Below are positions 10,746 to 58,165 of a stretch of 64,000 bases of DNA, one piece after another. The notes below the pieces were generated by a model. The model was not told where the DNA came from, made no database searches, and saw only the letters and a program-made list of their open reading frames with translations. The position numbers and the translations under genes were made by a program. Each line of letters opens with the position of its first letter. The stretch's first letter is position 1. The stretch is from a virus. Where the stretch lies: positions 56,085 through 120,084 of IMG/VR virus record IMGVR_UViG_3300032214_000986; one strand, written 5' to 3'.

Positions 10746-13700
10746 TTATGCCAATTCTACCCAATCATTTGATGGGTTAAAGTAAAGTTCATCCGCCGCA
10801 ATCGCATAACCAACAACTCTAACAATATCCGCAGTCCCTGTTGGTTGAGTAGATGAAAGACCTCCGGCGGTTACAGACAAATAAACAGGTGCACCAATTG
10901 TAAATGACCAAGATGTATTTTTAAAGTACCCTCTAATTAACATACCTCTATTAAAACCTGCGGCTGTTGTTGCAATAGCTAATAAATTTCTAGATGAGGA
11001 CGCAGCATCCGCATCCGCAGCAATCCATGTTGATGAAGAAGAAAGATAGTAAACATTACCTGCAACAACACCACTACCTATATCCCCAATTGATAATGCC
11101 TCACCATACCATTGACCATTAGTTGTAAGAACCGTAACAGGGTCTGTATTAATTTTCCACGATCCAGCACCTCTTGTAACTTCTAATTCCCCATCAACGG
11201 TTGCGTCCACCGAAACTGTCACATTACCCGTTACCGCTAAAGTGGTCCCATTAAATGTTAAGTTTGGTTCTGAATTTGCCGAATTTGCCGTTCCGTTAGC
11301 GGTTAATACGTTATTATCGGTTGTTGGTGAAATGGTTGTGAACCCTGTACCACTAGAACCCGCACTTCCTGAGGATCCTGAAGAACCTCTAGTACCCGAT
11401 GTCCCACTAGACCCTGACGACCCACTTGACCCTGACGATCCGCTAGAACCTGATGTTCCACTATTACCTGAACTACCACTAGATCCTGAAGTTCCATTCG
11501 CTCCGCTTGTTCCACTTGATCCAGATGTTCCACTATTACCTGAACTACCACTAGATCCTGAAGTTCCCGTATTACCTGAACTACCACTAGATCCTGATGT
11601 ACCTGTGTTTCCTGAAGTTCCGCTCGACCCACTTGTACCCGCAGCTCCCGATGCTCCTGAAGAACCACTAGTCCCTGAAGTACCACTAGATCCTGATGTC
11701 CCCGTATTACCTGACGATCCGCTCGACCCTGACGAACCTCTTGTCCCCGATGTACCACTTGAACCACTATTACCTGACGATCCGGATGTGCCTGTATTTC
11801 CTGATGACCCCGATGTTCCATTCGCACCACTCGTACCTGAACTACCACTTGTCCCACTATTACCTGAAGAACCTGACGTTCCGCTATTTCCTGAAGAACC
11901 ACTAGAACCTGATGTTCCACTATTTCCTGAAGAACCACTACTTCCACTTGTTCCTGAAGAACCCGATGTTCCGCTATTACCCGATGAACCACTTGATCCT
12001 GAAGTACCATTTGCTCCGCTTGTTCCACTAGAACCCGATGTTCCACTATTTCCTGAAGAACCACTTGATCCTGATGTTCCATTTGCTCCGCTTGTTCCTG
12101 AAGAACCTGATGTTCCGCTATTACCTGAACTACCACTACTTCCACTTGTTCCTGAAGAACCTCTTGTACCCGAAGTACCGCTCGAACCTGATGACCCACT
12201 TGAACCTGACGATCCACTTGAACCTGATGTTCCGCTATTACCTGAACTACCACTACTTCCACTTGTTCCTGAAGAACCTGACGTTCCACTATTACCCGAA
12301 GAACCGCTAGACCCCGAAGTACCATTTGCGCCACTCGTTCCTGAGCTCCCTGATGTTCCACTATTACCTGATGAACCACTTGAACCTGATGTTCCACTAT
12401 TACCTGATGAACCACTCGTACCACTCGTTCCTGAAGAGCCTGATGTTCCACTATTACCCGATGACCCTGAAGTACCTGCAGAACCACTTGATCCTGAAGT
12501 ACCATTTGCGCCGCTCGTACCACTAGAACCTGAAGTTCCACTATTTCCTGAAGAACCGCTAGACCCCGATGTTCCATTTGCTCCTGAAGTACCGCTAGTA
12601 CCGGACGAACCTCTTGTTCCTGAGGTACCACTCGATCCCGAACTACCTGATGATCCTGACGACCCACTAGATCCGGACGTTCCGCTATTTCCTGAAGAAC
12701 CTGAAGTCCCACTTGTACCGCTAGAACCTGAAGTTCCACTATTTCCCGAAGAACCGCTAGAACCTGAAGTCCCACTATTACCTGAAGAACCACTACTACC
12801 TGCAGACCCTGAACTACCACTGGTTCCTGACGTACCTGAAGACCCGCTCGTACCGCTATTACCCGATGAACCTGAAGACCCCGCACTTCCGCTAGATCCA
12901 GATGTTCCTGAGCTACCTGATGTTCCGCTATTTCCGCTTGAACCTGAAGACCCCGCACTTCCGCTAGATCCACTCGTACCCGAACTTCCTGAAGTACCGC
13001 TATTTCCACTTGAACCTGAAGAACCGCTAGATCCGTTTGTTCCACTAGTACCTGATGTACCTGACGAACCTCTAGTACCTGAGGTACCACTTGATCCGGA
13101 CGAACCTGATGAACCACTCGAACCTGCAGAACCGGATGTACCCGATGTTCCGCTTGAACCTGAAGTCCCACTATTTCCTGATGATCCGCTCGTCCCTGAA
13201 GAACCTGATGTTCCACTATTTCCTGAAGATCCGCTAGATCCCGCACTACCGCTAGACCCTGACGTACCACTTGTTCCTGAAGAACCCGAAGTTCCACTAT
13301 TACCTGAACTACCACTTGAACCTGATGTACCACTAGAACCATTTGTCCCACTAGTTCCTGATGTGCCTGATGATCCTCTTGTTCCTGATGTACCGCTTGA
13401 ACCAGCAGACCCTGAACTACCTGAAGAACCCGCAGAACCAGATGACCCACTTGTTCCTGACGTTCCGCTAGTACCACTAGAACCAGATGTACCACTATTT
13501 CCTGAAGAACCGCTTGATCCTGATGTTCCGCTATTACCACTTGAACCTGAGCTTCCTGATGTACCACTTGTGCCTGAGCTTCCTGATGTACCACTTGAAC
13601 CGGCAGACCCTGAACTACCTGAAGAACCGGATGTTCCACTATTTCCTGAAGACCCACTTGAGCCTGATGTACCGCTTGTTCCTGAAGAACCAGATGTTCC

Positions 13701-14735
13701 ACTATTTCCACTTGAACCTGAACTACCACTTGATCCTGCAGAACCCGAAGTACCACTATTACCCGAACTACCACTACTTCCACTTGAACCACTAGTTCCT
13801 GATGTACCGCTTGAACCAGCAGACCCTGAACTACCTGAAGAACCACTTGTTCCCGCACTTCCACTAGCCCCTGATGTTCCACTCGTACCTGAACTTCCTG
13901 ATGACCCTGCACTTCCGCTAGATCCCGAACTACCTGATGTCCCGCTCGACCCGTTTGTTCCACTTGTTCCTGAAGTACCTGATGAACCACTTGAACCCGC
14001 ACTTCCGCTAGATCCTGAAGTACCACTATTTCCACTTGAACCTGAGGACCCTGCAGAACCTGAAGTTCCACTTGACCCTGATGTTCCACTATTTCCACTT
14101 GAACCTCCCGTACCACTACTACCTGAGCTTCCGGCAGATCCTGATGTTCCACTCGTTCCTGAACTTCCTGATGTCCCGCTATTTCCACTTGACCCTGACG
14201 TTCCGCTCGTACCACTAGACCCCGAAGTTCCACTATTACCTGAAGACCCACTTGACCCTGCACTACCCGCAGAACCTGAACTTCCTGATGAACCCGCACT
14301 ACCGCTAGTTCCGGATGTACCACTACTTCCTGAAGACCCTGATGTGCCGCTAGTCCCACTATTTCCTGAAGAACCTGAAGAACCACTACTACCCGCAGAA
14401 CCGGATGTTCCGCTTGGACCTACAATGTCCCAATTGGTGTTATCACTTTGGATATATAATGAACCGTATTGTAATAATGTTTTTGTTGATGACCCGTCAA
14501 TAGTTTGACCTCCTGTTGTTGCAACAGTTATTGTTCCTGAACCACTATTTTTAATTACGAAAACTTGACCTTGTATCCCTACCGCAGTTGGTAAGGTTAC
14601 GGTAAATGTTCCTGAAACACAATCAACTAAATAGTTTTCTGTATTTACAGTGTATGTTGCACTCACCGCAGAATACGGTAAAATGACACCTCCTAAAGAT
14701 TTTAGGCCGTTACGGGCTACAAATTTATTACTCAT
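10746..14735 (-). CDS. Giant Gly-X-Y (G-T/S-S) repeat fibre protein, collagen-like or polyglycine-II-like
   Basis: About 1030 aa of [12 protein letters not shown] triplets. N-terminal beta domain [24 protein letters not shown] and C-terminal domain ending ..VVGYA..LYFNP, both seen in phage fibre/decoration proteins. Confidence 0.8.
11345..14420 (-). repeat. Coding 9-nt-period Gly-X-Y repeat tract
   Basis: Continuous CCTGAA/CCACT-type 9-mers on the plus strand with heavy synonymous variation. Confidence 0.95.
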
Positions 14736-14740
14736 ATAGT

Positions 14741-14768
14741 TTTTCTTTTTTCCCTATCCAAAAGAAAA
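14741..14768 (-). promoter_or_regulatory. 5' leader hairpin of the fibre gene (9-bp stem, loop GGAUAGGGAA)
   Basis: TTTTCTTTT 14741-14749 pairs with AAAAGAAAA 14760-14768; lies between the TATTTAT motif (14791-14797) and the ATG at 14735. Confidence 0.5.
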
Positions 14769-14840
14769 GTCGTATTTATGTTTTTATTTAATAAATACTA
14801 GATAAGTAAACTTTATACCTTTTTATTTAAAAATATACTT

Positions 14841-17800
14841 TTAGTTAGATAGTAGTATCCTAACATGGACTAATATATCCCATGTCCCACCACCAATCGA
14901 AGCGTCGAAATAAAGTGTAGATGCCGATACAGTTACCTTCCAAATGAAGTCATTAGTTGTCCCGTTTAAATCAGGAGATGAGACATCTGTAGAATCCGCA
15001 CTACTACCATCCCAAACAACATATACTTGTCCCATTCTTTTAGCACCATTATCTCTTGTGACACAATATTCAAAAAATGCCGCACAACCTAAATCAGTAC
15101 TAAACGATAATATATTTTGACTGGCAGAAACATTATTATCGGTCGTTGTATTAACTAAATGATATCCTAATTGTCTAAAATCACCATTATCGGTTAACAT
15201 TGAACCATCAAATGTTAAGTTAGGTTCGGCAACAATGCCACCCGCACCATCAGAGGTTAATACTTCATTATCACTTCCAGGTACCGTTGGGGAAACTCCT
15301 GAAGTACCGCTTGAACCTGAAGTACCACTAGTACCTGATGAACCTCTAGTACCAGAAGTACCTGAAGAACCACTAGACCCTGAACTACCACTTGTCCCTG
15401 ATGTTCCACTTGTACCTGAACTACCACTTGTCCCTGATGTTCCGCTAGTTCCTGAAGACCCACTCGTCCCATTTGCTCCTGAGGTACCACTAGACCCTGA
15501 CGATCCACTTGAACCTGAATTACCACTTGTTCCTGATGTTCCGCTAGTTCCTGAAGACCCACTTGATCCCGAACTACCTGATGAACCTGAACTTCCAGCG
15601 GTACCACTAGTACCTGAAGAACCACTTGTTCCACTAGCACCTGATGTTCCTGAACTACCACTTGTTCCTGCAGACCCTGATGTTCCACTTATACCTGAAG
15701 TTCCGCTAGAACCACTTGATCCTGAACTACCGCTCGTACCCGAAGTTCCGCTAGTTCCTGAAGTACCACTTGTCCCTGAAGAACCTGCACTTCCACTTGA
15801 CCCCGAGGAACCTGACGTTCCACTCGTACCTGTTGAACCCGAACTACCTGACGTTCCACTAGATCCCGATGTCCCGCTACTTCCTGAGGAACCTGACGAC
15901 CCACTAGATCCAGAAGACCCACTTAAACCTGAAGTTCCTGATGTACCTGAAGATCCACTTGACCCTGCAGACCCTGAAGAACCACTTGACCCCGCAGATC
16001 CAGATGTTCCTGAACTACCTGACGATCCGGTACTTCCGCTAGAACCTGATGTTCCACTTATACCTGAAGTTCCGCTAGAACCACTTGAACCAGCCGAACC
16101 ACTACTACCACTTGATCCTGAAGTTCCGCTAGACCCTGAAGACCCCGTACTACCACTTGAACCTGACGTTCCGCTAGTACCTGAAGACCCTCGAGTTCCA
16201 CTCGTACCGGAACTACCTGAAGACCCTGCACTTCCACTTGATCCTGATGAACCTGAAGTTCCACTTGTTCCTGATAAACCCGCACTCCCACTACTTCCTG
16301 ATGAACCATTTGTACCACTAGTTCCTGATGTACCTGAAGAACCCGAACTACCTACTAAGTAAAAATCTAAACAATAGACAACCCCCGGATTTGGTACAAA
16401 CCCTATTCCTGAAATATGAGATACTCCAAAGGTATGATAAGTACCTGAATCTGTATTCGATGTTATACTAAAGAAAAATGGTCCGTTGGATCCATCTAAC
16501 CTCACTATTGTACCAACAGTGATAGAATCTAAATACGAATCCAAATCCGTACCACTATTTGTTTGGTCACTTACGTATAAAGTATTTGTTGATGGTCCTA
16601 ATCCAACACTACCATTTGTAATTAATGTTCCTAAACCTGGTGGGATACCCTCACCCCAATACCAACATCCTACGGCAGATGAGTTACCGCTAGTTCCTGA
16701 TGAACCACTAGACCCTGACGTACCACTTGTTCCTGAAGTTCCGCTAGATCCTGAAGACCCGGCACTACCACTCGATCCCGACGAACCTGAACTACCACTT
16801 GTTCCGGAAGAACCACTTGAACCCGCAGAACCTGAACTTCCTGATGTTCCACTTGTTCCTGAAGTTCCACTTGTTCCTGAAGAACCTGCAGACCCACTTG
16901 AACCTGCAGTTCCCGATGTGCCACTTGTTCCTGAAGAACCGCCAGTACCACTTGTTCCTGAAGAACCGCCAGTACCACTTGTTCCCGCACTACCTGACGA
17001 ACCTGAACTACCACTTAATCCACTAGTTCCACTTGAACCCGAACTACCTGATGAACCACTTGAACCCGAACTACCTGACGTTCCGCTAGTGCCCGATGAC
17101 CCTGATGTGCCACTAGATCCCGATGACCCTGACGCTCCTGAAGAACCTGATGTCCCACTCGAACCGTTGGTTCCGTTTAAACCACTAACTCCTGAAGTTC
17201 CTGCAGTACCTGATGTTCCACTTGTTCCTGATGTCCCACTAGATCCACCACTACCCGATGTCCCCGAACTACCTGAAGAACCACTCGATCCTGAACTTCC
17301 TGAAGAACCACTCGACCCTGAACTTCCTGATGTGCCGCTCGTTCCTGATGTACCTGAACTTCCGCTTGAACCCGCAGAACCTGAACTTCCGCTAGTTCCT
17401 GATGTTCCGCTAGTTCCTGATGTTCCGCTCGAACCACTTGTTCCTGACAAACCTGATGACCCACTTGATCCCGCACTACCTGACGTACCACTACTACCTG
17501 ACGTACCACTTGATCCCGAACTACCACTTGAACCCGAGCTACCACTACTACCACTTGAACCCGCAGAACCTGCACTTCCACTTGATCCTGATGTTCCTGC
17601 ACTACCACTACTACCACTTGAACCTGCAGAACCCGATGTTCCCGCACTCCCGCTAGTACCTGATGTGCCACTTGTACCCGATGTGCCTGAATTACCGCTT
17701 GAACCCGCAGAACCTGAACTTCCGCTTGAACCCGCAGAACCTGAACTACCACTAGACCCTGATGTACCTGACGTTCCACTTGTTCCTGTTGAACCTGAAG

Positions 17801-19982
17801 AACCACTTGAACCTGATGTTCCGCTAGTACCTGAACTACCATTAGCACCTGAAGTCCCACTCGTACCCGAAGACCCTGAAGTCCCTGAGGTACCGCTAGA
17901 CCCTGTTGACCCACTAGACCCCGATGTACCACTTGTTCCACTTGTACCCGATGTACCACTTGTTCCAGAAGACCCGTTAATACCGCTTGTTCCTGAAGAA
18001 CCTGAAGAACCTGAAGAACCTGAAGAACCCGAAGATCCTGACGTACCTGATGTCCCACTCGTTCCTGATGAACCACTAGTACCACTAGTACCACTATTAC
18101 CACTCGTTCCAGAAGACCCGTTAATACCACTCGTTCCTGATGAACCTGATGATCCTGAGCTTCCACTTGAACCTGAGCTTCCGGTTGAACCTGAGGTTCC
18201 TGATGTCCCTGATGTTCCACTTGTTCCTGTTGAACCACTAGACCCCGAAGTACCTGAATTTCCACTAGACCCACTTGAACCGCTAGAACCTGATGTCCCT
18301 GATGTCCCACTTGTTCCTGTTGAACCTGAGCTCCCTGAAGTACCTGATGTTCCACTTGTTCCTGTTGAACCTGAGCTCCCTGAAGTACCTGAATTTCCAC
18401 TAGACCCACTTGAACCGGTAGAACCTGACGACCCTGAAGTCCCGCTTGTTCCTGAAGTCCCGCTTGTTCCTGAAGTTCCACTTGATCCTGACGAACCTGA
18501 ACTTCCACTCAACCCGCTTGTTCCTGACGAACCTGAACTTCCACTTGAACCTGCAGAACCCGATGTTCCACTTAATCCTGAAGTTCCACTTGATCCTGAT
18601 GAACCTGAGCTTCCACTTAATCCTGACGAACCTGAACTTCCACTCAACCCGCTTGAACCCGCAGAACCTGAACTTCCGCTTGAACCCGCAGAACCTGAAC
18701 TTCCTGACGTTCCTGATGTTCCTGAGGTACCGCTTGAACCTGCAGACCCGCTTGATCCCGACGAACCTGAACTACCACTTAAACCTGATGTGCCTGAACT
18801 ACCTGATGAACCACTTGACCCCGAAGACCCCGAAGACCCACTTGTCCCTGATGAACCATTTGTTCCATCGACACCACTTAAACCTGAACTTCCGCTAGAA
18901 CCGGCATTACCACTCGTTCCGGAACTACCACTTGACCCTGAGGAACCTGAAGAACCACTACTACCTGATGAACCAGATGTCCCTGAACTACCACTTGAAC
19001 CTGAGGAACCTGAACTTCCACTAGACCCACTCGTTCCGCTAGAACCTGATGAACCACTACTCCCATTTGAAGTTATTCCAGTAATTGAAACAACTCCGTT
19101 ATCTGTTCTGTATAACTCGATAGTACTACTTGCCGAGAAGTAAGTCCCGCCGGTTACGTAAATGTCTGTAAACCCCGTTAAAAACCCGTTTACGTTAAAT
19201 GTACCACCTGTATTATTTGTAAATGTTGCAACACCGTTATTTGGATTATACGTACCACCTGTAACGAATATTTCAGGAGGTAACCCTAAATAAGTCGTAG
19301 CTGAAAATGTACCATTAACCGTTAATCCGGTCATGGTATTTATTGTGGCATTATATGTACCACCGGTAACATCTAATATTGTGAACGTATTATTTAAATA
19401 AGTAAAACCACTTATTCCTGTACCCGTACCTGAACCCGCACATGTTCTAAACTTTCTCCAAGTCGAGGTTTCGTCACCTCCGTTGTAACCTTCAATTGTA
19501 TTACCCGTCCACATATTAACGAATGCGGCTCCTGCAACACTATTACTTTTAACGGTAGTACCAAAATCAGAAAAAACTACACTTGGTCCACCAGGACCCG
19601 ATGCTGCAACGGCATTATTCCAAACGGTTTGATAATTTTGTAAATGAAATTGGTATACACAATCAGTTTCATGAACATAGGCAAGCATACCTAATCTTCT
19701 TCTACCTGAAGAAATATTATCAGAACCTAAAGTTATAACATTAGGTGAAAATATACTACCGGAACCAACTTGTAATTGTATTGGAATTGTATTACCTGAG
19801 TTCTCAATATATCCCGTAGTTCCTGAAGGGACAGTGAAGAATAAATCAGATAAATTATACACCTCCATAAAACCACCAACACCCAACACACTAATATTAG
19901 TGCCGTAAGTGCTTGTTCGTAAAACCGAAGGAGCACCTAATACGTTAATGGGGGTTATTGGATTTTTATATATTCCTGACAT
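14841..19982 (-). CDS. Second giant Gly-X-Y Ser/Thr-rich fibre protein with an internal globular insert
   Basis: Globular N-terminus with VTGGTY repeats; two G-X-Y tracts (about 16680-19065 and 15295-16350) separated by a non-repeat segment of about 110 aa; globular C-terminus. Confidence 0.8.
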   Translation of the reverse strand: MSGIYKNPITPINVLGAPSVLRTSTYGTNISVLGVGGFMEVYNLSDLFFTVPSGTTGYIENSGNTIPIQLQVGSGSIFSPNVITLGSDNISSGRRRLGMLAYVHETDCVYQFHLQNYQTVWNNAVAASGPGGPSVVFSDFGTTVKSNSVAGAAFVNMWTGNTIEGYNGGDETSTWRKFRTCAGSGTGTGISGFTYLNNTFTILDVTGGTYNATINTMTGLTVNGTFSATTYLGLPPEIFVTGGTYNPNNGVATFTNNTGGTFNVNGFLTGFTDIYVTGGTYFSASSTIELYRTDNGVVSITGITSNGSSGSSGSSGTSGSSGSSGSSGSSGSSGTSGSSGSSGSSGSSGSSGSSGTSGNAGSSGSSGLSGVDGTNGSSGTSGSSGSSGSSGSSGSSGTSGLSGSSGSSGSSGSAGSSGTSGTSGTSGSSGSAGSSGSSGSAGSSGLSGSSGSSGLSGSSGSSGSSGTSGLSGTSGSAGSSGSSGSSGTSGLSGSSGSSGSSGTSGTSGTSGTSGTSGSSGSTGSSGSSGNSGTSGSSGSTGTSGTSGTSGSSGSTGTSGTSGTSGSSGSSGSSGNSGTSGSSGSTGTSGTSGTSGTSGSTGSSGSSGSSGSSGSSGTSGINGSSGTSGNSGTSGTSGSSGTSGTSGTSGSSGSSGSSGSSGSSGTSGINGSSGTSGTSGTSGTSGTSGSSGSTGSSGTSGTSGSSGTSGTSGANGSSGTSGTSGSSGSSGSTGTSGTSGTSGSSGSSGSAGSSGSSGSAGSSGNSGTSGTSGTSGTSGSAGTSGSAGSSGSSGSAGTSGSSGSAGSAGSSGSSGSSGSSGSSGSSGTSGSSGTSGSAGSSGSSGLSGTSGSSGTSGTSGTSGTSGSSGSAGSSGSSGTSGTSGTSGSSGSSGSSGSSGSSGSSGSSGTSGSGGSSGTSGTSGTSGTAGTSGVSGLNGTNGSSGTSGSSGASGSSGSSGTSGSSGTSGTSGSSGSSGSSGSSGSSGTSGLSGSSGSSGSAGTSGTGGSSGTSGTGGSSGTSGTSGTAGSSGSAGSSGTSGTSGTSGTSGSSGSAGSSGSSGTSGSSGSSGSSGSAGSSGSSGTSGTSGTSGSSGSSGTSGNSSAVGCWYWGEGIPPGLGTLITNGSVGLGPSTNTLYVSDQTNSGTDLDSYLDSITVGTIVRLDGSNGPFFFSITSNTDSGTYHTFGVSHISGIGFVPNPGVVYCLDFYLVGSSGSSGTSGTSGTNGSSGSSGSAGLSGTSGTSGSSGSSGSAGSSGSSGTSGTRGSSGTSGTSGSSGSTGSSGSSGTSGSSGSSGSAGSSGSSGTSGISGTSGSSGSTGSSGSSGTSGSAGSSGSSGSAGSSGSSGTSGTSGLSGSSGSSGSSGSSGSSGTSGSSGTSGSSGSTGTSGTSGSSGSSGSAGSSGTSGTSGTSGTSGTSGSSGSSGSSGTSGISGTSGSAGTSGSSGTSGASGTSGSSGTSGTAGSSGSSGSSGSSGSSGTSGTSGTSGNSGSSGSSGSSGTSGANGTSGSSGTSGTSGTSGSSGTSGTSGTSGSSGSSGSSGTSGTRGSSGTSGTSGSSGTSGVSPTVPGSDNEVLTSDGAGGIVAEPNLTFDGSMLTDNGDFRQLGYHLVNTTTDNNVSASQNILSFSTDLGCAAFFEYCVTRDNGAKRMGQVYVVWDGSSADSTDVSSPDLNGTTNDFIWKVTVSASTLYFDASIGGGTWDILVHVRILLSN

Positions 19983-53769: not shown

Positions 53770-53850
53770 TTATTTTTTTGATAAGTAATCATTTAACGCC
53801 AATAGTCCATATACAATTATAAAGCAAATAATTAATAGTGGATTTCCCAT
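53770..53850 (-). CDS. 26-aa single-TM micropeptide
   Basis: MGNPLLIICFIIVYGLLALNDYLSKK; directly downstream of TTTG-N20-TATCTTTA (53889-53858); stop lies 2 nt before the next ATG. Confidence 0.5.
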   Translation of the reverse strand: MGNPLLIICFIIVYGLLALNDYLSKK

Positions 53851-53916
53851 AGTAGAGTAAAGATAAAAAATAAGTTAGATTTTGTCAAACAAAAAACCCC
53901 ATTCGTTGGGGGTAAT

Positions 53917-54288
53917 CTATTTAAGTCGGGATTTATTAATCCTTAATAAGAACTTTTCAGCTTCCTCTACATGAATATCCTCCAAGTAGTCTTCCAATTC
54001 TTCGGTGTCCCCAATATAAGACATAATAGGTATTGTTGTTTCCATTGGTAGAGTCATAAACTTAAATTCAAGTTCCCCATCTTCATCAATCTCCCAATAA
54101 CAATTAGATGTTCCAGCAAGAGGAGTCATATCATCATCGTAGTTCTTTGGAAAGAATGTGACATAGGTTTGAAATTGATTATCTCCACGATATGTGGAAC
54201 CCTCCCCTTCAATATCATAGTACTTGGAAATAAGTCTAACCGACTTATTGGTCTCTTCTTTTAAAATATGTTTGATGAGGTTTTTCAT
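53917..54288 (-). CDS. Leader-bearing hypothetical protein
   Basis: MKNLIKHILKEE; TATTTAT upstream. Confidence 0.7.
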   Translation of the reverse strand: MKNLIKHILKEETNKSVRLISKYYDIEGEGSTYRGDNQFQTYVTFFPKNYDDDMTPLAGTSNCYWEIDEDGELEFKFMTLPMETTIPIMSYIGDTEELEDYLEDIHVEEAEKFLLRINKSRLK

Positions 54289-54559
54289 ATAAGAATAAAT
54301 ACCCCGATTTTCCTAAAATTTTTCTGGAATTTTTTTTTCGTATATAGGGGGTATTCCGATTTTTAAAGATTTTTTCCCAAAATATTTTTTAAGACCATAT
54401 TACCTTTTTTAAAACTTATACTCTGCAAGGGGGATTGACCCCCTTTTTGACCCTGTCAAAGTGTCATATAAGAGGGGGGATACGGGGGAGGGGGCCCCCA
54501 ATATATGAGGAGGAGGGGGTATGCCAAAGTATAGGTCCCCCTATGTAGGGAACCATAAG

Positions 54560-54568
54560 TTATCCACA
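54560..54568 (+). promoter_or_regulatory. Perfect DnaA box TTATCCACA in non-coding DNA
   Basis: Exact consensus match. Further boxes on the opposite strand at 55574-55582 (TTATTCACA) and 55615-55623 (TTATCAACA, one mismatch). Confidence 0.55.
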
Positions 54569-54611
54569 ACAATTGTTTGTAACTATATCTGAAATAAATG
54601 TGGGGGATTGT

Positions 54612-54642
54612 TTTGTGGTGTCGATTATTATCCGTACCTTTA
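54612..54642 (+). promoter_or_regulatory. Bacteroidota-type promoter TTTG-N19-TACCTTTA
   Basis: Spacing and motif match; no credible ORF downstream. Confidence 0.6.
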
Positions 54643-54880
54643 TGGTGTAACCTTTTTAATCGAGGGGGACCGAGTAGACTCCACCCTGCCTTATATTTTT
54701 TTATATAGGCATAAAAAAATTCCCCTCCTTCTACAGGGGGAATCACAAAGAATGTATGTTGAACAAATTCATCTTGAACTTTACGGACCGACTTGGTTCC
54801 TGAACAACTAACTCCCTACTGTGGGGGGAACGAATTCATAATATAAATATACGATTAATTTAAAAAAACTAAATGGTTTG

Positions 54881-54912
54881 TTTGGTAGTGTCAATTACAT
54901 TCACTATCTTTG
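54881..54912 (+). promoter_or_regulatory. Consensus Bacteroidota promoter TTTG-N20-TATCTTTG
   Basis: Exact -33/-7 consensus; no credible ORF downstream. Confidence 0.75.
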
Positions 54913-55061
54913 TATGGACAATGTGAGAGAGATGTCGGGCTGGGGGAACAACACCCCTTGGAGTGTAGACTCCAACCTGTCTTATTAAAAAAAATAAAGG
55001 TCCCCATTATTTGTGAGGGAAGGTCTTGTCAGTCTCAGATATTCTTCTTATACTTGTACAT

Positions 55062-55229
55062 ATGAAAACTATCCTACTAATCAATCTTATCATCGGGTAT
55101 GTAACACTCTTTGGTGTTCTACTCATTGGGGGTTCCATGATGACCCTTAACTATTTCCCCACTTCTAAAGTGTCTTCTTTCATTCGTCGTCATTTGATTA
55201 CTGATGAAGACATTGAACCTATGGACTAA
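55062..55229 (+). CDS. Small membrane protein
   Basis: MKTILLINLIIGYVTLFGVLLIGG; ATG lies 5 nt after CTTG-N20-TATACTTG (55025-55056). Confidence 0.65.
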   Translation: MKTILLINLIIGYVTLFGVLLIGGSMMTLNYFPTSKVSSFIRRHLITDEDIEPMD

Positions 55230-55540
55230 GAATAGAAAGTATCCATCTTATCTATTGCCAAGTTAATGATTGATGTTCTTACTTGGTGGTAATCCTCTTC
55301 AGATAAATTATAGTACTGATTTAAAAACTGTAACACATCCCCCATGTTAGCATCGACAATTACATATTGTCTTTTATTAACAATGGGTTTCTTTGACCAT
55401 CCCCTCTTTGAGAATTCAAAATAGACAACTCCGTCATCGGTCAATCCTTCGTTATGTTTGAATATACATTTCATCCCCATACTGTCCTCAGTGATCGTTG
55501 GGGTATAATGTTTTGTTATAAAATTAATCATTGGGTCCAT
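55226..55540 (-). CDS. Hypothetical protein
   Basis: Start set to ATG 55540 (MDPMINF); TATTTAT at 55557-55563. Confidence 0.6.
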   Translation of the reverse strand: MDPMINFITKHYTPTITEDSMGMKCIFKHNEGLTDDGVVYFEFSKRGWSKKPIVNKRQYVIVDANMGDVLQFLNQYYNLSEEDYHQVRTSIINLAIDKMDTFYS

Positions 55541-55589
55541 ATGTACATTAATGTTAATAAATATTAACCTATTTGTGAATAACAAATTG

Positions 55590-56440
55590 GGGATGACATA
55601 CTGTCAGGGGGGATTGTTGATAACTATTTTTACCATTTTGCTTGATTTTGTCAAAATGTCAGTCAGCGAACGCTCACGGCACAATCCCTTTTACCACTTT
55701 CTACCACATGGTCTTACCACTAATTACCACCCCTTTTTACCGCTGGTCATATCAGGAGGGTAAAAAATCCCCCCTAGTGGTGGTGATAGAAGGGTTTTTT
55801 TATATATAGACGTTTTCCAGCTAAAAAATGTCCCTATGATGTAGTAGCCGCGGAGACGAAGTCCTATAGTTCTTCCAACGTATAGGGAACCGAAAATATC
55901 CCCTTCAACGTGTCATTAAGTCATGTCCCCAACGATAGATAACAACCATAAAGACCACCATATTAGTGGTAGAAAGTGGTAGTTATTATTCATATCAGAT
56001 ATATCAGGTTTCACCTGACAATAATGATATAAGATAAAACTATCATCAGTAAAGAACTTATATAACTTACCATATAATCATACCATACTGTTCATTATTT
56101 TCTATTGTTCAGTGTCACTGAACATACCCTTTTAGTGAACACCATATACATGATAAAATAAAGTTACTATAAAGGTCACCATAATGTTACGTTCATATAT
56201 GGGGGACCCATTGTAAATGGGGGAAATGATTTATATGATAATAATCATATAAACGAAAATATATGACAATAATCATATATTATCTTAACGTAATATACAT
56301 TACTGTAATGACCATTACAATAAGGTTTAAGATATGTCCTAATAATTACCACATATATTATATAGAAATGTAAACGGTAGAACTATATCGTCTATATAAC
56401 CGATAACTTATAATATCGTTTAATTAACCGATAATAATAC
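55590..56440. other. Non-coding array of operator-like palindromes and tandem motifs
   Basis: No credible ORF; many distinct inverted or tandem repeats (see findings). Confidence 0.7.
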
Positions 56441-56507
56441 AATACATTTATGAACGAAAAAGGAGACCCGTATGGAGTCTCCCTTTGTAGTGAGTGAATG
56501 GAATGTA

Positions 56508-56738
56508 TTAATATCGTGATACATTAATATTAATCAAGTAATTAATAGTCCCTTCAGGAATGTATCTATTAATTACGTTATCTACCTCCGCTTTAATTAA
56601 ATTTCTAACTATTTCGTTATCGTATCTAAGGTCTTTAATACTAAACACGATGAAATAAGTCTCATTCATAAAACTAACCGTTAATGGGATATTTAATTCC
56701 TGTAAAATTAAATCAATATATTCAGTTAGGTCTTTCAT
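56508..56738 (-). CDS. MKDL-family small protein
   Basis: MKDLTEYIDLIL; paralogous to the next gene. Confidence 0.65.
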   Translation of the reverse strand: MKDLTEYIDLILQELNIPLTVSFMNETYFIVFSIKDLRYDNEIVRNLIKAEVDNVINRYIPEGTINYLININVSRY

Positions 56739-56740
56739 CT

Positions 56741-57103
56741 TTACAATTGATTTGTATTGTCTAAATAACCCATAGGATTATAATCTACCACATAACTTGA
56801 AATCCCCTCTAAATCTATTTCTGACGATACAGTAAAAGTCACATTAATAGTTTGGTATTCGATCGGTATGTTAATACGGTTAACACTAACTTTAAACATA
56901 GTCTCAGGTAGATATGTTGCTAACATCGCTTCTGTTTTAGTAACCAAGCTTTTTATTAAGAAATCACCAAAACGATATAGATTTACATTATTTCCGTAGT
57001 CATATACAATATCCACATAATATACATTATCCACATATTTTACTTCACACGGGTTTTTTATCCCATCAAGGAGTGATTCTACATATTTAGTTAGATCTTT
57101 CAT
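56741..57103 (-). CDS. MKDL-family small protein
   Basis: MKDLTKYVESLL from ATG 57103; TATATTAG host-type element just upstream. Confidence 0.65.
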   Translation of the reverse strand: MKDLTKYVESLLDGIKNPCEVKYVDNVYYVDIVYDYGNNVNLYRFGDFLIKSLVTKTEAMLATYLPETMFKVSVNRINIPIEYQTINVTFTVSSEIDLEGISSYVVDYNPMGYLDNTNQL

Positions 57104-57169
57104 AATGCTAATATATAAAAAATCCCCCATTCTACAATGGAGGATTCTAATTACTTTATGTGAAATATA

Positions 57170-58165
57170 TTATTCGTTAATATACTTTATCTCTTTAGAT
57201 CCATCACTGTATGTGTAGATTAACATCTTGTTTGGTTGTATCTTAACTTCTCTACCCATTAAATCTGAAACACGAATAAGTTGTTTACTGTTACCTGATA
57301 GTTCGTCAATCCCTACGAATCCTACATACTCATTCTGATTTAAAACGATAGTCTTATAGTTCATTGTTTTATTATAACAATATACAACTAATTGGAAGTT
57401 ATAACATCCTGTTGAGTCTATCATTGGGTAGTTCACCATATATGTTTGGTATGTACCTGTTGTATCAATAACATACCACACACATAAAATACTATCTAAA
57501 CCACTATTAATAGGACTATTTATTGTCATATATGTAGTGTCAACTGTATTATAATTAATCGTACAATCCTCTATTGTTGAGGTAAAAGTACTTAAAGGAT
57601 TATTACATGTACCTGCGTTGTTTATAATTAACGTATCACCCATTGATTGTGTTACGATTGAATCACATAATGTAGTGTTACATCCGTTTGCGTCCATTAC
57701 ATAACAACAGTATCCACCTACAGGTAAATTATTGATTGTCTGAAGCATATTACCATTACTCCACTGATATGTGTATGGTGCCGTTCCGTTTATTACATTT
57801 ACCGTCATTGATCCATCATTAATCGTAGAGTCAATTGTAGTAATATACCCACCGAAGTTTAGACATGGGTTAAATGTTCCTGCCGTGATAACAAACGTTA
57901 ATGTCACAGGTGTGTTGTTGGTTACAAATGTAACGCTGTATGATCCAGGACATAGGTTTGTTACATAGTAACTTCCCTGACCGATAACCATACCCATTCC
58001 TTGCCATACGATATTTGATGTTGTGACAACTGTACTGTCTAACGCTGCCGTCCCATCACATACGTTTGGTCCTGATGTTTGTGTTGTGTAAACTTGTGTC
58101 TGTGAGAACAAGTTAAAAGATAATACGCTTAGTAACGTAAGTAATAATAATTTTAAATTTTTCAT
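57170..58165 (-). CDS. Secreted SprB-repeat protein with a Flavobacteriales-like C-terminal sorting domain
   Basis: Signal peptide; GTAPYTYQWSNG..NLP.G.Y...V.DANGC; C-terminal GIDE..LIRVSDLMGRE..LIYTYSDGS. Confidence 0.8.
   Translation of the reverse strand: MKNLKLLLLTLLSVLSFNLFSQTQVYTTQTSGPNVCDGTAALDSTVVTTSNIVWQGMGMVIGQGSYYVTNLCPGSYSVTFVTNNTPVTLTFVITAGTFNPCLNFGGYITTIDSTINDGSMTVNVINGTAPYTYQWSNGNMLQTINNLPVGGYCCYVMDANGCNTTLCDSIVTQSMGDTLIINNAGTCNNPLSTFTSTIEDCTINYNTVDTTYMTINSPINSGLDSILCVWYVIDTTGTYQTYMVNYPMIDSTGCYNFQLVVYCYNKTMNYKTIVLNQNEYVGFVGIDELSGNSKQLIRVSDLMGREVKIQPNKMLIYTYSDGSKEIKYINE

Follow-up and report, generated by a model that had tools for sequence, protein, structure and literature searches.

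A conserved single-copy module with host-operator-like sites: a candidate control region upstream of a small orphan gene in jumbo phages

Introduction

DnaA boxes are familiar elements of phage and plasmid control regions, with lambda, P1 oriR and the iteron plasmids as examples, and the datA locus of E. coli acts as a titration locus. Phage control regions that make use of host factors are a known kind. Here, we discuss a noncoding region at positions 55,590 to 56,440 of a 64-kb stretch of viral DNA (the window), which makes up the final 64 kb of the 120,084-bp contig IMGVR_UViG_3300032214_000986 from the IMG/VR database. In this region, GTGG boxes, DnaA-like boxes and TGACA dyads are lined up in front of a conserved small gene. 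All positions below are those of the whole window.

Two described systems come closest as points of reference. MraZ boxes are given, in the part of PMC12957436 that deals with them, as GTG(G/T) motifs with six spacer nucleotides in between (a 10-bp period), usually three in number. In the sections of PMC3016281 on T4 origins, oriE is described as having evenly spaced iterons, a dependence on an early promoter and the small genes repEA and repEB nearby, and the iterons' own role is presented as unproven. The same sections state that T4 origins tend toward points of transcription divergence (PMC3016281).

We hold with moderate confidence that the region may be read as the upstream control region of the conserved small gene at 55229–55540, i.e., as a host-factor-gated promoter and possibly an origin. 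The binding events, the transcription and the biological output are what we infer in this reading from the DNA.

A conserved module in front of a small gene

The region consists of two parts, a gene-proximal module (55545–56030) and a distal, AT-rich half that is filled with dyads. The first relatives (L002–L005) were reached via flanking proteins. Compared with one of them (L004), the stretch 54875–56031 is 76% identical over 1168 nucleotides (nt), and this includes the noncoding DNA at 55586–56031. The noncoding part contains long invariant blocks and is conserved like, or better than, the adjacent gene (whose protein is 59–70% identical). Past 56031, the alignment with relatives continues in islands only. 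The anatomy of the module, its conservation, its single copy and its likeness to host sites can be read directly from such comparisons.

One 18-mer, taken from the block with the strongest conservation, is present in 63 IMG/VR stretches, of which 56 have the whole module and seven are unrelated chance matches. Five genomes of 292–326 kb have a completeness of at least 99%, and each of them contains one exact copy in a search that allowed up to two mismatches, and one of the five has an additional two-mismatch site. This single copy per genome rules out the 18-mer as a general promoter class. The position of the module varies among the five near-complete contigs. The flanks of the 18-mer are conserved too, though they lie outside the search pattern, and the distant relative L003 still retains the invariant 15-mer ACTGACATTTTGACA.

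The 18-mer also has 85 matches in 185,579 species genomes. Only two of these carry the module, both on small contigs that resemble phage fragments, and therefore the 18-mer is not a bacterial chromosomal operator. The other matches are mostly coding, many of them within one conserved gene, putatively rpsE. As an observation in its own right, two metagenome-assembled genomes (MAGs) of Flavobacteriaceae (L075 and L091) have the exact 18-mer in noncoding DNA, 7 nt upstream of TGGCAGTACTTTTG, which is readable as a -24/-12 or a TAnnTTTG promoter.

Read in the orientation of the gene (minus strand), the module starts with the palindrome TCAGGT-N3-ACCTGA and an inverted GTGG pair, followed by a core of about 150 nt, a terminator-like element, GTGG boxes, GGGGATTATCCCC and ACTGACATTTTGACAAAATCAAG. 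After ACTGACATTTTGACAAAATCAAG come a DnaA-like box (TTATNNACA), a TGACA-N3-TGWCA dyad and finally the conserved orphan gene, which encodes about 100 amino acids (aa; open reading frames (ORFs) of about 90–140 aa). A homologous ORF of about 90–140 aa follows the 18-mer within 26–150 nt in 36 of the 37 unique cases, and 36 of the 37 unique downstream ORFs belong to two BLAST clusters of 23 and 13 members. The partner protein diverges to 12–28% identity in the family alignment, while the 21-mer is invariant. The GGGGATTATCCCC palindrome is present with at most two mismatches in 24 of 36 relatives, and not in the window. The outermost palindrome, TCAGGT-TTC-ACCTGA, is common to the window and four relatives (L004, L005, L002 and L008). 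Its arm variants (CAGGT, TAGGT, AAGGT and TACCC) stay complementary, and a strict pattern matches 10 of the 36 loci.

The initial annotation had described the region as a candidate sponge for host transcription factors, with operator-like sites that no adjacent gene start needs. This does not agree with what surrounds the sites. A conserved minus-strand gene begins at 55540, adjoining the array, and the sites form an ordered single-copy module directly upstream of it, with a terminator-like hairpin in front. We regard the module as a heavily regulated promoter region because of its fixed order and distances, its single copy, the terminator-like element in front of it and its constant partner gene. 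The hairpin at 55761–55802 belongs to the same class as those closing the neighbouring minus-strand genes, and since it lies just upstream of the box array, the small gene should need its own promoter here. The TTGACA within the invariant core could plausibly act as a host -33 element, as host promoters show TTGAC about 19–20 nt before TAnnTTTG-like boxes.

The working of such a promoter may be pictured as follows. Its -33/-35-like TTGACA would lie inside the invariant 21–23-mer. Upstream of this, four or five GTGG boxes repeat every 10 bp and are accompanied by a GC palindrome, and the DnaA-like box and the TGACA-N3-TGWCA dyad lie downstream, before the start codon. Farther upstream, the inverted GTGG set and the terminator-like hairpin would bracket the conserved core. 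Host proteins on these sites might then gate the unique promoter by the state of the host, the candidate occupants being MraZ for the GTGG boxes, and perhaps also DnaA and the regulator of an hsp20/lon regulon (see below). The same nucleoprotein complex may act as an early replication origin in the style of T4 oriE. A more ambitious version is doubtful in our view: the hub would capture MraZ and maybe DnaA and the hsp20/lon regulator, sense the host state, time the early gene or the origin, and drain these regulators as its copies rise.

Likeness to host sites

The GTGG boxes, TGACA-N3-TGTCA and the DnaA-like 9-mers were compared with Bacteroidia genomes. At least two GTGG boxes at a 10/11-bp period are present in 36/36 relatives and on the opposite (control) strand in 0/36, and the inverted pair occurs in 24 of 36 relatives versus 1 of 36 in the control. 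In three genomes, box pairs cluster at the module; in the contig of the window, three of the six matches in 120 kb lie within 500 bp. The regions upstream of mraZ in 30 Bacteroidia genomes mostly contain two to four GTGG(G/T/A)-N5 boxes with A-rich spacers, which sit just after TTGAC...TAnnTTTG promoters. One of these host regions has the window's own 14-mer GTGGTAGAAAGTGG, and AAAGTGGGGAAAG is another shared form. The phage repeats have the GTG(G/T) unit, the six-nt spacer and the one-strand arrangement of MraZ boxes, as well as a likeness to the boxes of the probable host group. Three or four contiguous boxes, on the other hand, are not typical of the phages, as a chain of at least three at a 10/11-bp period was found in only 3 of 36 relatives. 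None of five phage genomes (four complete) encodes MraZ, and in the best-ranked literature on MraZ and phage binding sites, MraZ boxes are not described for any phage.

The dyad at 55594–55606 is the sole TGACA-N3-TGTCA in the 120-kb contig. At this position, 15 of 36 relatives have TGWCA-N3-TGWCA, seven of them strictly inverted. In 151 Bacteroidia genomes, TGACA-N3-TGTCA has 221 sites versus 145 for the reversed control (tallied by hand), and the excess sits in a few genomes (7–9 sites versus 0–2). In four genomes (L187, L193, L212 and L215), TGACA-W3-TGTCA is found 60–120 bp upstream of hsp20 promoters of the type TGGCAC-N5-TT, in one to three copies with A/T spacers and a spacing of about 20 bp. 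In one genome (G134), this arrangement is divergent from lon. The combination of TGACA-W3-TGTCA and TGGCAC-N5-TT is the layout of a putative sigma-54 enhancer site, and no description of an hsp20/lon operator of Bacteroidia was found in the literature searched. The invariant 15-mer of the phages, ACTGACATTTTGACA, differs from the host ACTGACATTTTGTCA in one base. A sigma-54-type promoter behind the phage TGACA sites was looked for and rejected, with 0/36 in the relatives and none convincing in the contig.

DnaA-like 9-mers with at most one mismatch give 32 matches in 42 loci in the bin from 0 to +100, compared with about 0.1 per 100 bp elsewhere. The relaxed pattern TTAT[CGT][CA]ACA is present in 32 of 36 relatives. 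In the window, the pair consists of TTATCAACA and TTATTCACA, 41 bp apart, and three relatives (L021, L041 and L060) have clusters of the perfect box TTATCCACA. The C-terminal, DNA-binding domain of DnaA was found in 0/5 phage genomes (four complete). The resemblance to host operators that the initial annotation had suggested can be kept for the GTGG boxes (mraZ), the TGACA dyad (hsp20/lon) and the DnaA-like box, and none of the distal dyads is matched to a host motif here.

Feature map, noncoding character and distal half

Table 1. Features in and around the region, with positions in the 64-kb window
Position	Strand	Feature	Remarks
55229–55540	-	Conserved orphan gene, 104 aa	ATG at 55540
55574–55582		DnaA-box-like 9-mer TGTGAATAA	1 mismatch; +78 from the 18-mer
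55594–55606		TGACA-TAC-TGTCA dyad, TGACATACTGTCA	Flanked by C/G runs; between promoter-like element and gene
55615–55623	-	DnaA-like box TGTTGATAA / TTATCAACA	Fixed at +37 from the 18-mer
55641–55663	-	Invariant ACTGACATTTTGACAAAATCAAG	Holds TGACA-TTT-TGACA, TTGACA (-33/-35-like) and the 13-bp palindrome ATTTTG-N-CAAAAT
55649–55661		TGTCAAAATGTCA	Second TGWCA-N3-TGTCA-type site of the initial annotation
55678–55690		Position of the GGGGATTATCCCC palindrome	Window copy degenerate, GGGATTGTGCC
55692–55743	-	Four GTGGTA boxes and one GCGGTA box	Spacing 10, 13, 10, 13 bp; MraZ-box-like
55692/55702 and 55715/55725		TACCAC pairs	Read as GTGGTA on the minus strand
55761–55802		A-run, GC hairpin, T-run	Terminator-like, possibly bidirectional; separates core from promoter-proximal part
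55803–55953	-	Conserved core	2–3 CGTTGRRG repeats, small stem-loop, block TTAGCTGGAAAA-N-TATA-A7 (GCTGGAAAA-TATA-A7)
55954–55981	+	Inverted GTGGTA boxes (55966, 55976)	Face the first set across the core
56004–56018		TCAGGT-TTC-ACCTGA palindrome	Left border of the widely conserved module
56031–56440		AT-rich dyad field and 28-bp direct repeats	Largely lineage-specific
56106–56124		TGTTCAGTG-T-CACTGAACA	Extra half-sites TGTTCA (56089) and TGAACA (56136)
56207–56221		CCCATT-GTA-AATGGG	
56230–56253 and 56258–56281		24-nt twin dyads	
56304–56319		TGTAATGACCATTACA	
		TAACCGATAA units	28 bp apart; distal field
56455–56486	-	Intrinsic-terminator-like hairpin and T-run	Closes the upstream minus-strand genes (56508–57130)

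The features are collected in Table 1. The motifs listed in the initial annotation are all where it had placed them, and most were found again in further scans. They lie in the stretch 55586–56507; nowhere else in the 120-kb contig is a longer stretch free of ORFs of 80 aa or more. An alternative genetic code was ruled out, with TAA, TAG and TGA each being present in all six frames of the gap. A 70-aa ORF on the plus strand (55551–55763) overlaps the gap and was rejected as coding: in relatives, the ORFs on this strand cross the invariant 18-mer in one or the other of two frames, and such an ORF is present in only 16 of 57 loci. The window contains no tRNA or tmRNA.

For the dyad density, we counted perfect dyads with arms of at least 6 and spacers of at most 8, and used 500 dinucleotide shuffles as the control. 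The region has 11 dyads versus 3.6 ± 2.0 in shuffled DNA, and two of the 500 shuffles get to 11, so a palindrome density above background, as initially claimed, is borne out. The excess is confined to the distal half (56031–56440), with nine dyads versus 3.3 (4/500); the proximal half shows no enrichment (two versus 1.1). Richness in dyads is found across the family, with 134 versus 60.1 expected in 35 loci, 11 of which lie more than two standard deviations above the mean.

The retention of motifs in relatives, another expectation attached to the decoy idea, turned out to apply to one part of the region. The proximal module is kept in dozens of relatives, whereas the AT-rich dyads, on which most of the initial decoy argument had rested, are largely lineage-specific: four of the nine named distal dyads are common to all three of the closest relatives (L004, L005 and L002), and three of the nine were found in no relative. 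The distal dyads are probably lineage-specific sites or hairpins for phage-specific factors or divergent promoters.

Terminator-like sites are frequent in this part of the genome, with 12 in 53800–57300 versus 2.2 expected. Among the side observations are hairpins that recur in the gaps between minus-strand genes (e.g., 57119–57148), built as CCYCC-loop-GGGGG with A-T6 after them. In the core, the small stem-loop varies among relatives with compensatory changes (GTCC/GGAC, GACAT/ATGTC, GGGAC/GTCCC, ACAC/GTGT and GAC/GTC). A column-wise count of structure on the core alignment was unusable, as the clades are in different registers.

The source phage and the neighbourhood of the module

The contig has a completeness of 40% (CheckV), a GC content of about 31% for the genome and a major capsid protein of the T4 type (gp23). 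Its nearest cultured capsid matches, at 37–42% identity, are Flavobacterium phage vB_FspM_immuto, Microcystis phage Mel-JY01 and Rhodothermus phage RM378. In relatives, this locus is found on contigs of 270–326 kb, and the source is therefore a T4-like jumbo phage. The metagenomes containing the phage DNA are from freshwater. An SprB repeat in a neighbouring protein and two module contigs in Bacteroidia/Bacteroidetes MAGs point weakly to a host in the Bacteroidota. No cultured relative emerged for the DNA itself: none of 50,697 phage records matched 55200–56800 in blastn, and the 246-nt core had chance matches only at E values up to 10.

The 104-aa protein has no Pfam or PHROG family. Its AlphaFold2 model, which is a confident one (predicted local distance difference test, 81.7), gave nothing with Foldseek against PDB and BFVD at E values up to 0.001, and the best VIA-align Z of 5.5 is under the stated noise level; in Atlas, the protein falls in a hypothetical viral cluster only (0.79). 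The neighbours of the module in relatives are DNA methylases, a glycosyltransferase and proteins without assigned function, with no replication genes among them.

Some observations around the module deserve mention in their own right. Six of about 56 module contigs (L044, L032, L051, L031, L042 and L057) end at most 100 nt from the 18-mer, which is far above chance. Most likely, the assemblies broke here because co-occurring relatives have a k-mer in common. A packaging site or genome end was considered and is not supported: the large terminase gene lies 55–107 kb away, the position of the module varies, and there is no terminal repeat in G001 or G003, two of the phage genomes.

A second low-coding stretch at 54289–55060 is in parts 84–90% identical to L004 and L005, exceeding the flanking genes. 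It contains a perfect DnaA box (TTATCCACA, 54560–54568), TGACACTTTGACA (54454–54466, minus strand), the palindrome GGGGGTCAATCCCCC (at about 54430) and several C/G-run hairpins with T-runs. This stretch may belong to the same control super-locus. Upstream of the region, the two genes at 56508–57130 have similar N-termini (MKDLT(E/K)Y), and their 5' ends cross-match several other gene starts in L002 at the DNA level, which suggests that these genes and their L002 counterparts could form a paralogous small-protein family. Farther away, a block of about 50% GC at 10746–19982 holds two very long ORFs on the minus strand (1329 and 1713 aa), the first of which matches collagen-like tail-fibre families.

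Weighing the explanations

Several findings weigh against a host-factor-gated promoter. The invariant phage site is TGACA-TTT-TGACA, a direct repeat, whereas the host operator is TGACA-W3-TGTCA; this deviation is present in every relative, and five host genomes have few sites of the direct type (9 versus 3 in the control). In the window, TTGACA is followed by a weak -7/-10 element. A DnaA-like box with at most one mismatch is present in only 14 of 36 relatives (within +60), and the commonest box, TTATTAACA (14/36), has two mismatches. The GTGG boxes of the phages are pairs spaced 10-13-10 bp, unlike the three to four strict 10-bp boxes of host mraZ, and with GTGG being so short, a phage protein could own the motif. 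The host link consists of two small MAG-binned contigs, the SprB repeat and the Flavobacterium phages among the nearest capsid matches. The module is 55–107 kb from the terminase gene, with the DNA polymerase gene a further 41–97 kb beyond, and cumulative GC skew has no inflection at the module in G001, while the minimum in G003 is the contig start. We consider GC skew uninformative as an origin signal here.

A replication origin, which the initial annotation had named as an alternative (a complex origin), is nevertheless a possibility that we entertain tentatively, and one that is compatible with the promoter reading. The opposed iteron sets, DnaA-like boxes, AT-rich dyads and promoter would then make up an origin like T4 oriE or those of iteron plasmids, in which transcription from the invariant promoter, or a transcript of the core, primes or activates unwinding. 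The single copy per genome fits this, as do the two inverted sets of iterons, the AT-rich and dyad-rich flank, and the DnaA-like box at its fixed place with several perfect TTATCCACA copies in L021, L041 and L060. In part of the family (e.g., G003), the upstream genes are divergent at the module, which recalls the T4 origins at divergence points and adds to the resemblance to oriE (PMC3016281, sections on T4 origins). However, besides the skew of G001 and G003, the lack of a nearby replication gene among those found, a partner protein unlike known initiators and the degenerate DnaA-like box in most relatives argue against an origin, and the role of the T4 oriE iterons is itself described as unproven in the same sections (PMC3016281). 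It is also conceivable that all sites serve phage-encoded proteins, for example the 104-aa protein as an autoregulator or iteron binder, and that the likeness to host sites is coincidental. The motifs are indeed short (GTGG and TGACA), the partner gene is always adjacent, in the usual place of an autoregulator, and the distal dyads vary with the lineage, as sites of co-evolving phage proteins do. We nonetheless think this improbable, as spacer composition, period and even a 14-mer are shared with host boxes, the 21-mer is invariant while the partner protein is down to 12–28% identity (which fits a conserved host factor better), and the 104-aa model has no recognisable DNA-binding fold.

The core could alternatively encode a noncoding RNA (about 55762–55950, minus strand), transcribed from a promoter beside the inverted boxes and ending at the 55761–55802 hairpin; its CGUUGRRG repeats and stem-loops would form a regulator, protein sponge or primer, and the DNA sites would regulate this RNA only. 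For such an RNA, the U-run hairpin is rightly placed, G-U pairs favour the minus strand in the window (-12.6 versus -10.6 kcal/mol), many relatives have TATAATTG-like boxes after the inverted repeats, the pairing of the small stem-loop is kept across at least five stem sequences, and the arms of the left palindrome show compensatory changes. Two-sided changes are also typical of palindromic protein sites, though, and RNAalifold predicts 0 consensus pairs for 32 sequences. Folding energy shows no strand preference either, as the forward strand has the more stable fold in 15 of 32 cases for the terminator segment and in 14 of 32 for the core, and no Rfam family reaches its gathering score in the window, the single match in 55400–56600 being at chance level (STnc420, E 0.38, 20.9 bits versus a gathering score of 70). 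Conserved structure with covariation and a strand bias is thus not seen, despite the local stem-loops with compensatory changes, and we judge the RNA to be an unlikely explanation. The decoy itself would titrate MraZ, DnaA and the hsp20/lon regulator as phage copies accumulate, and the effect would be a rewiring of division, replication and proteostasis in the host. In its favour, about 200 bp hold host-type sites for at least two different regulators, dyad richness is family-wide, and the phages have no MraZ and DnaA of their own; moreover, a sigma-54-type promoter follows the TGACA sites in 0/36 relatives, so a bound activator would have no obvious work. Yet there is a single copy per 300-kb genome, a sponge does not need a fixed order and distance to a promoter-like element and a conserved gene, the invariant site is one base off the host operator in every relative, the 18-mer is not a chromosomal operator (its 2 of 85 matches with the module being phage-like fragments), and the distal dyads are unconserved. 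A pure decoy is, to our mind, highly unlikely.

Significance

Very little has been explored of the noncoding control DNA in uncultured jumbo phages. The present module, which is single-copy and sharply delimited, has an invariant core of 21–23 nt and is present in dozens of genomes of 200–330 kb, and it offers a handle on how their programme starts. To our knowledge, the module is new: the literature searched holds no report of a module that combines MraZ-type boxes with a near-copy of a heat-shock operator and is kept in dozens of jumbo phages. If host MraZ binds the GTGG boxes, phage development would be tied to a regulator of host division, a link of which we found no report in the best-ranked literature. 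The more ambitious version described above would make this the first phage wired into MraZ and a multi-regulator sensor and sponge at the DNA level. A side result is a testable prediction of a Bacteroidia regulon, i.e., TGACA-W3-TGTCA upstream of sigma-54-type hsp20/lon promoters. The invariant core may further be used as a metagenome marker of the phage group, and it probably accounts for some of the assembly breaks in these metagenomes.

Comparison with known systems

With the MraZ operator, the module has in common GTG(G/T) boxes on one strand and A-rich spacers of about six nucleotides, and its boxes are near-identical to those upstream of mraZ in the 30 Bacteroidia genomes. The arrangement differs: the hosts have two to four contiguous boxes just downstream of the promoter, whereas in the phages, pairs spaced 10-13-10 bp lie upstream of a promoter-like element and a second, inverted set is found about 250 bp off. 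With the enhancer-type hsp20/lon operator, which is itself a candidate characterised from sequence in the present analysis only, the phage sites have the half-sites and spacing in common, and the window contains a true inverted copy 42 bp downstream. Here, the differences are the lack of a sigma-54-type promoter at the phage sites and the direct type of the invariant copy, which is rare in hosts. Compared with control regions that contain DnaA boxes, the phages likewise have a DnaA-like 9-mer at a fixed place beside iterons and a promoter, and perfect clusters in some relatives, but the box is degenerate in most relatives and an adjacent initiator of a known family is absent.

As in T4 oriE, evenly spaced direct repeats, a nearby promoter-like element and a small adjacent gene are all found, and they are syntenic. 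The partner protein had no match in PHROG, Pfam and fold searches that would relate it to RepEA or RepEB, with no direct sequence comparison made. In common with oriE, as the sections on T4 origins in PMC3016281 describe it, are the T4-like capsid lineage, the even, short direct repeats, the host-type promoter, the small gene and the synteny that is kept. The T4 iterons are 12-nt repeats with no known likeness to host operators, whereas the phage boxes are of the GTGG type, come in two inverted sets and are accompanied by DnaA-like and TGACA sites and by the invariant 21-mer.

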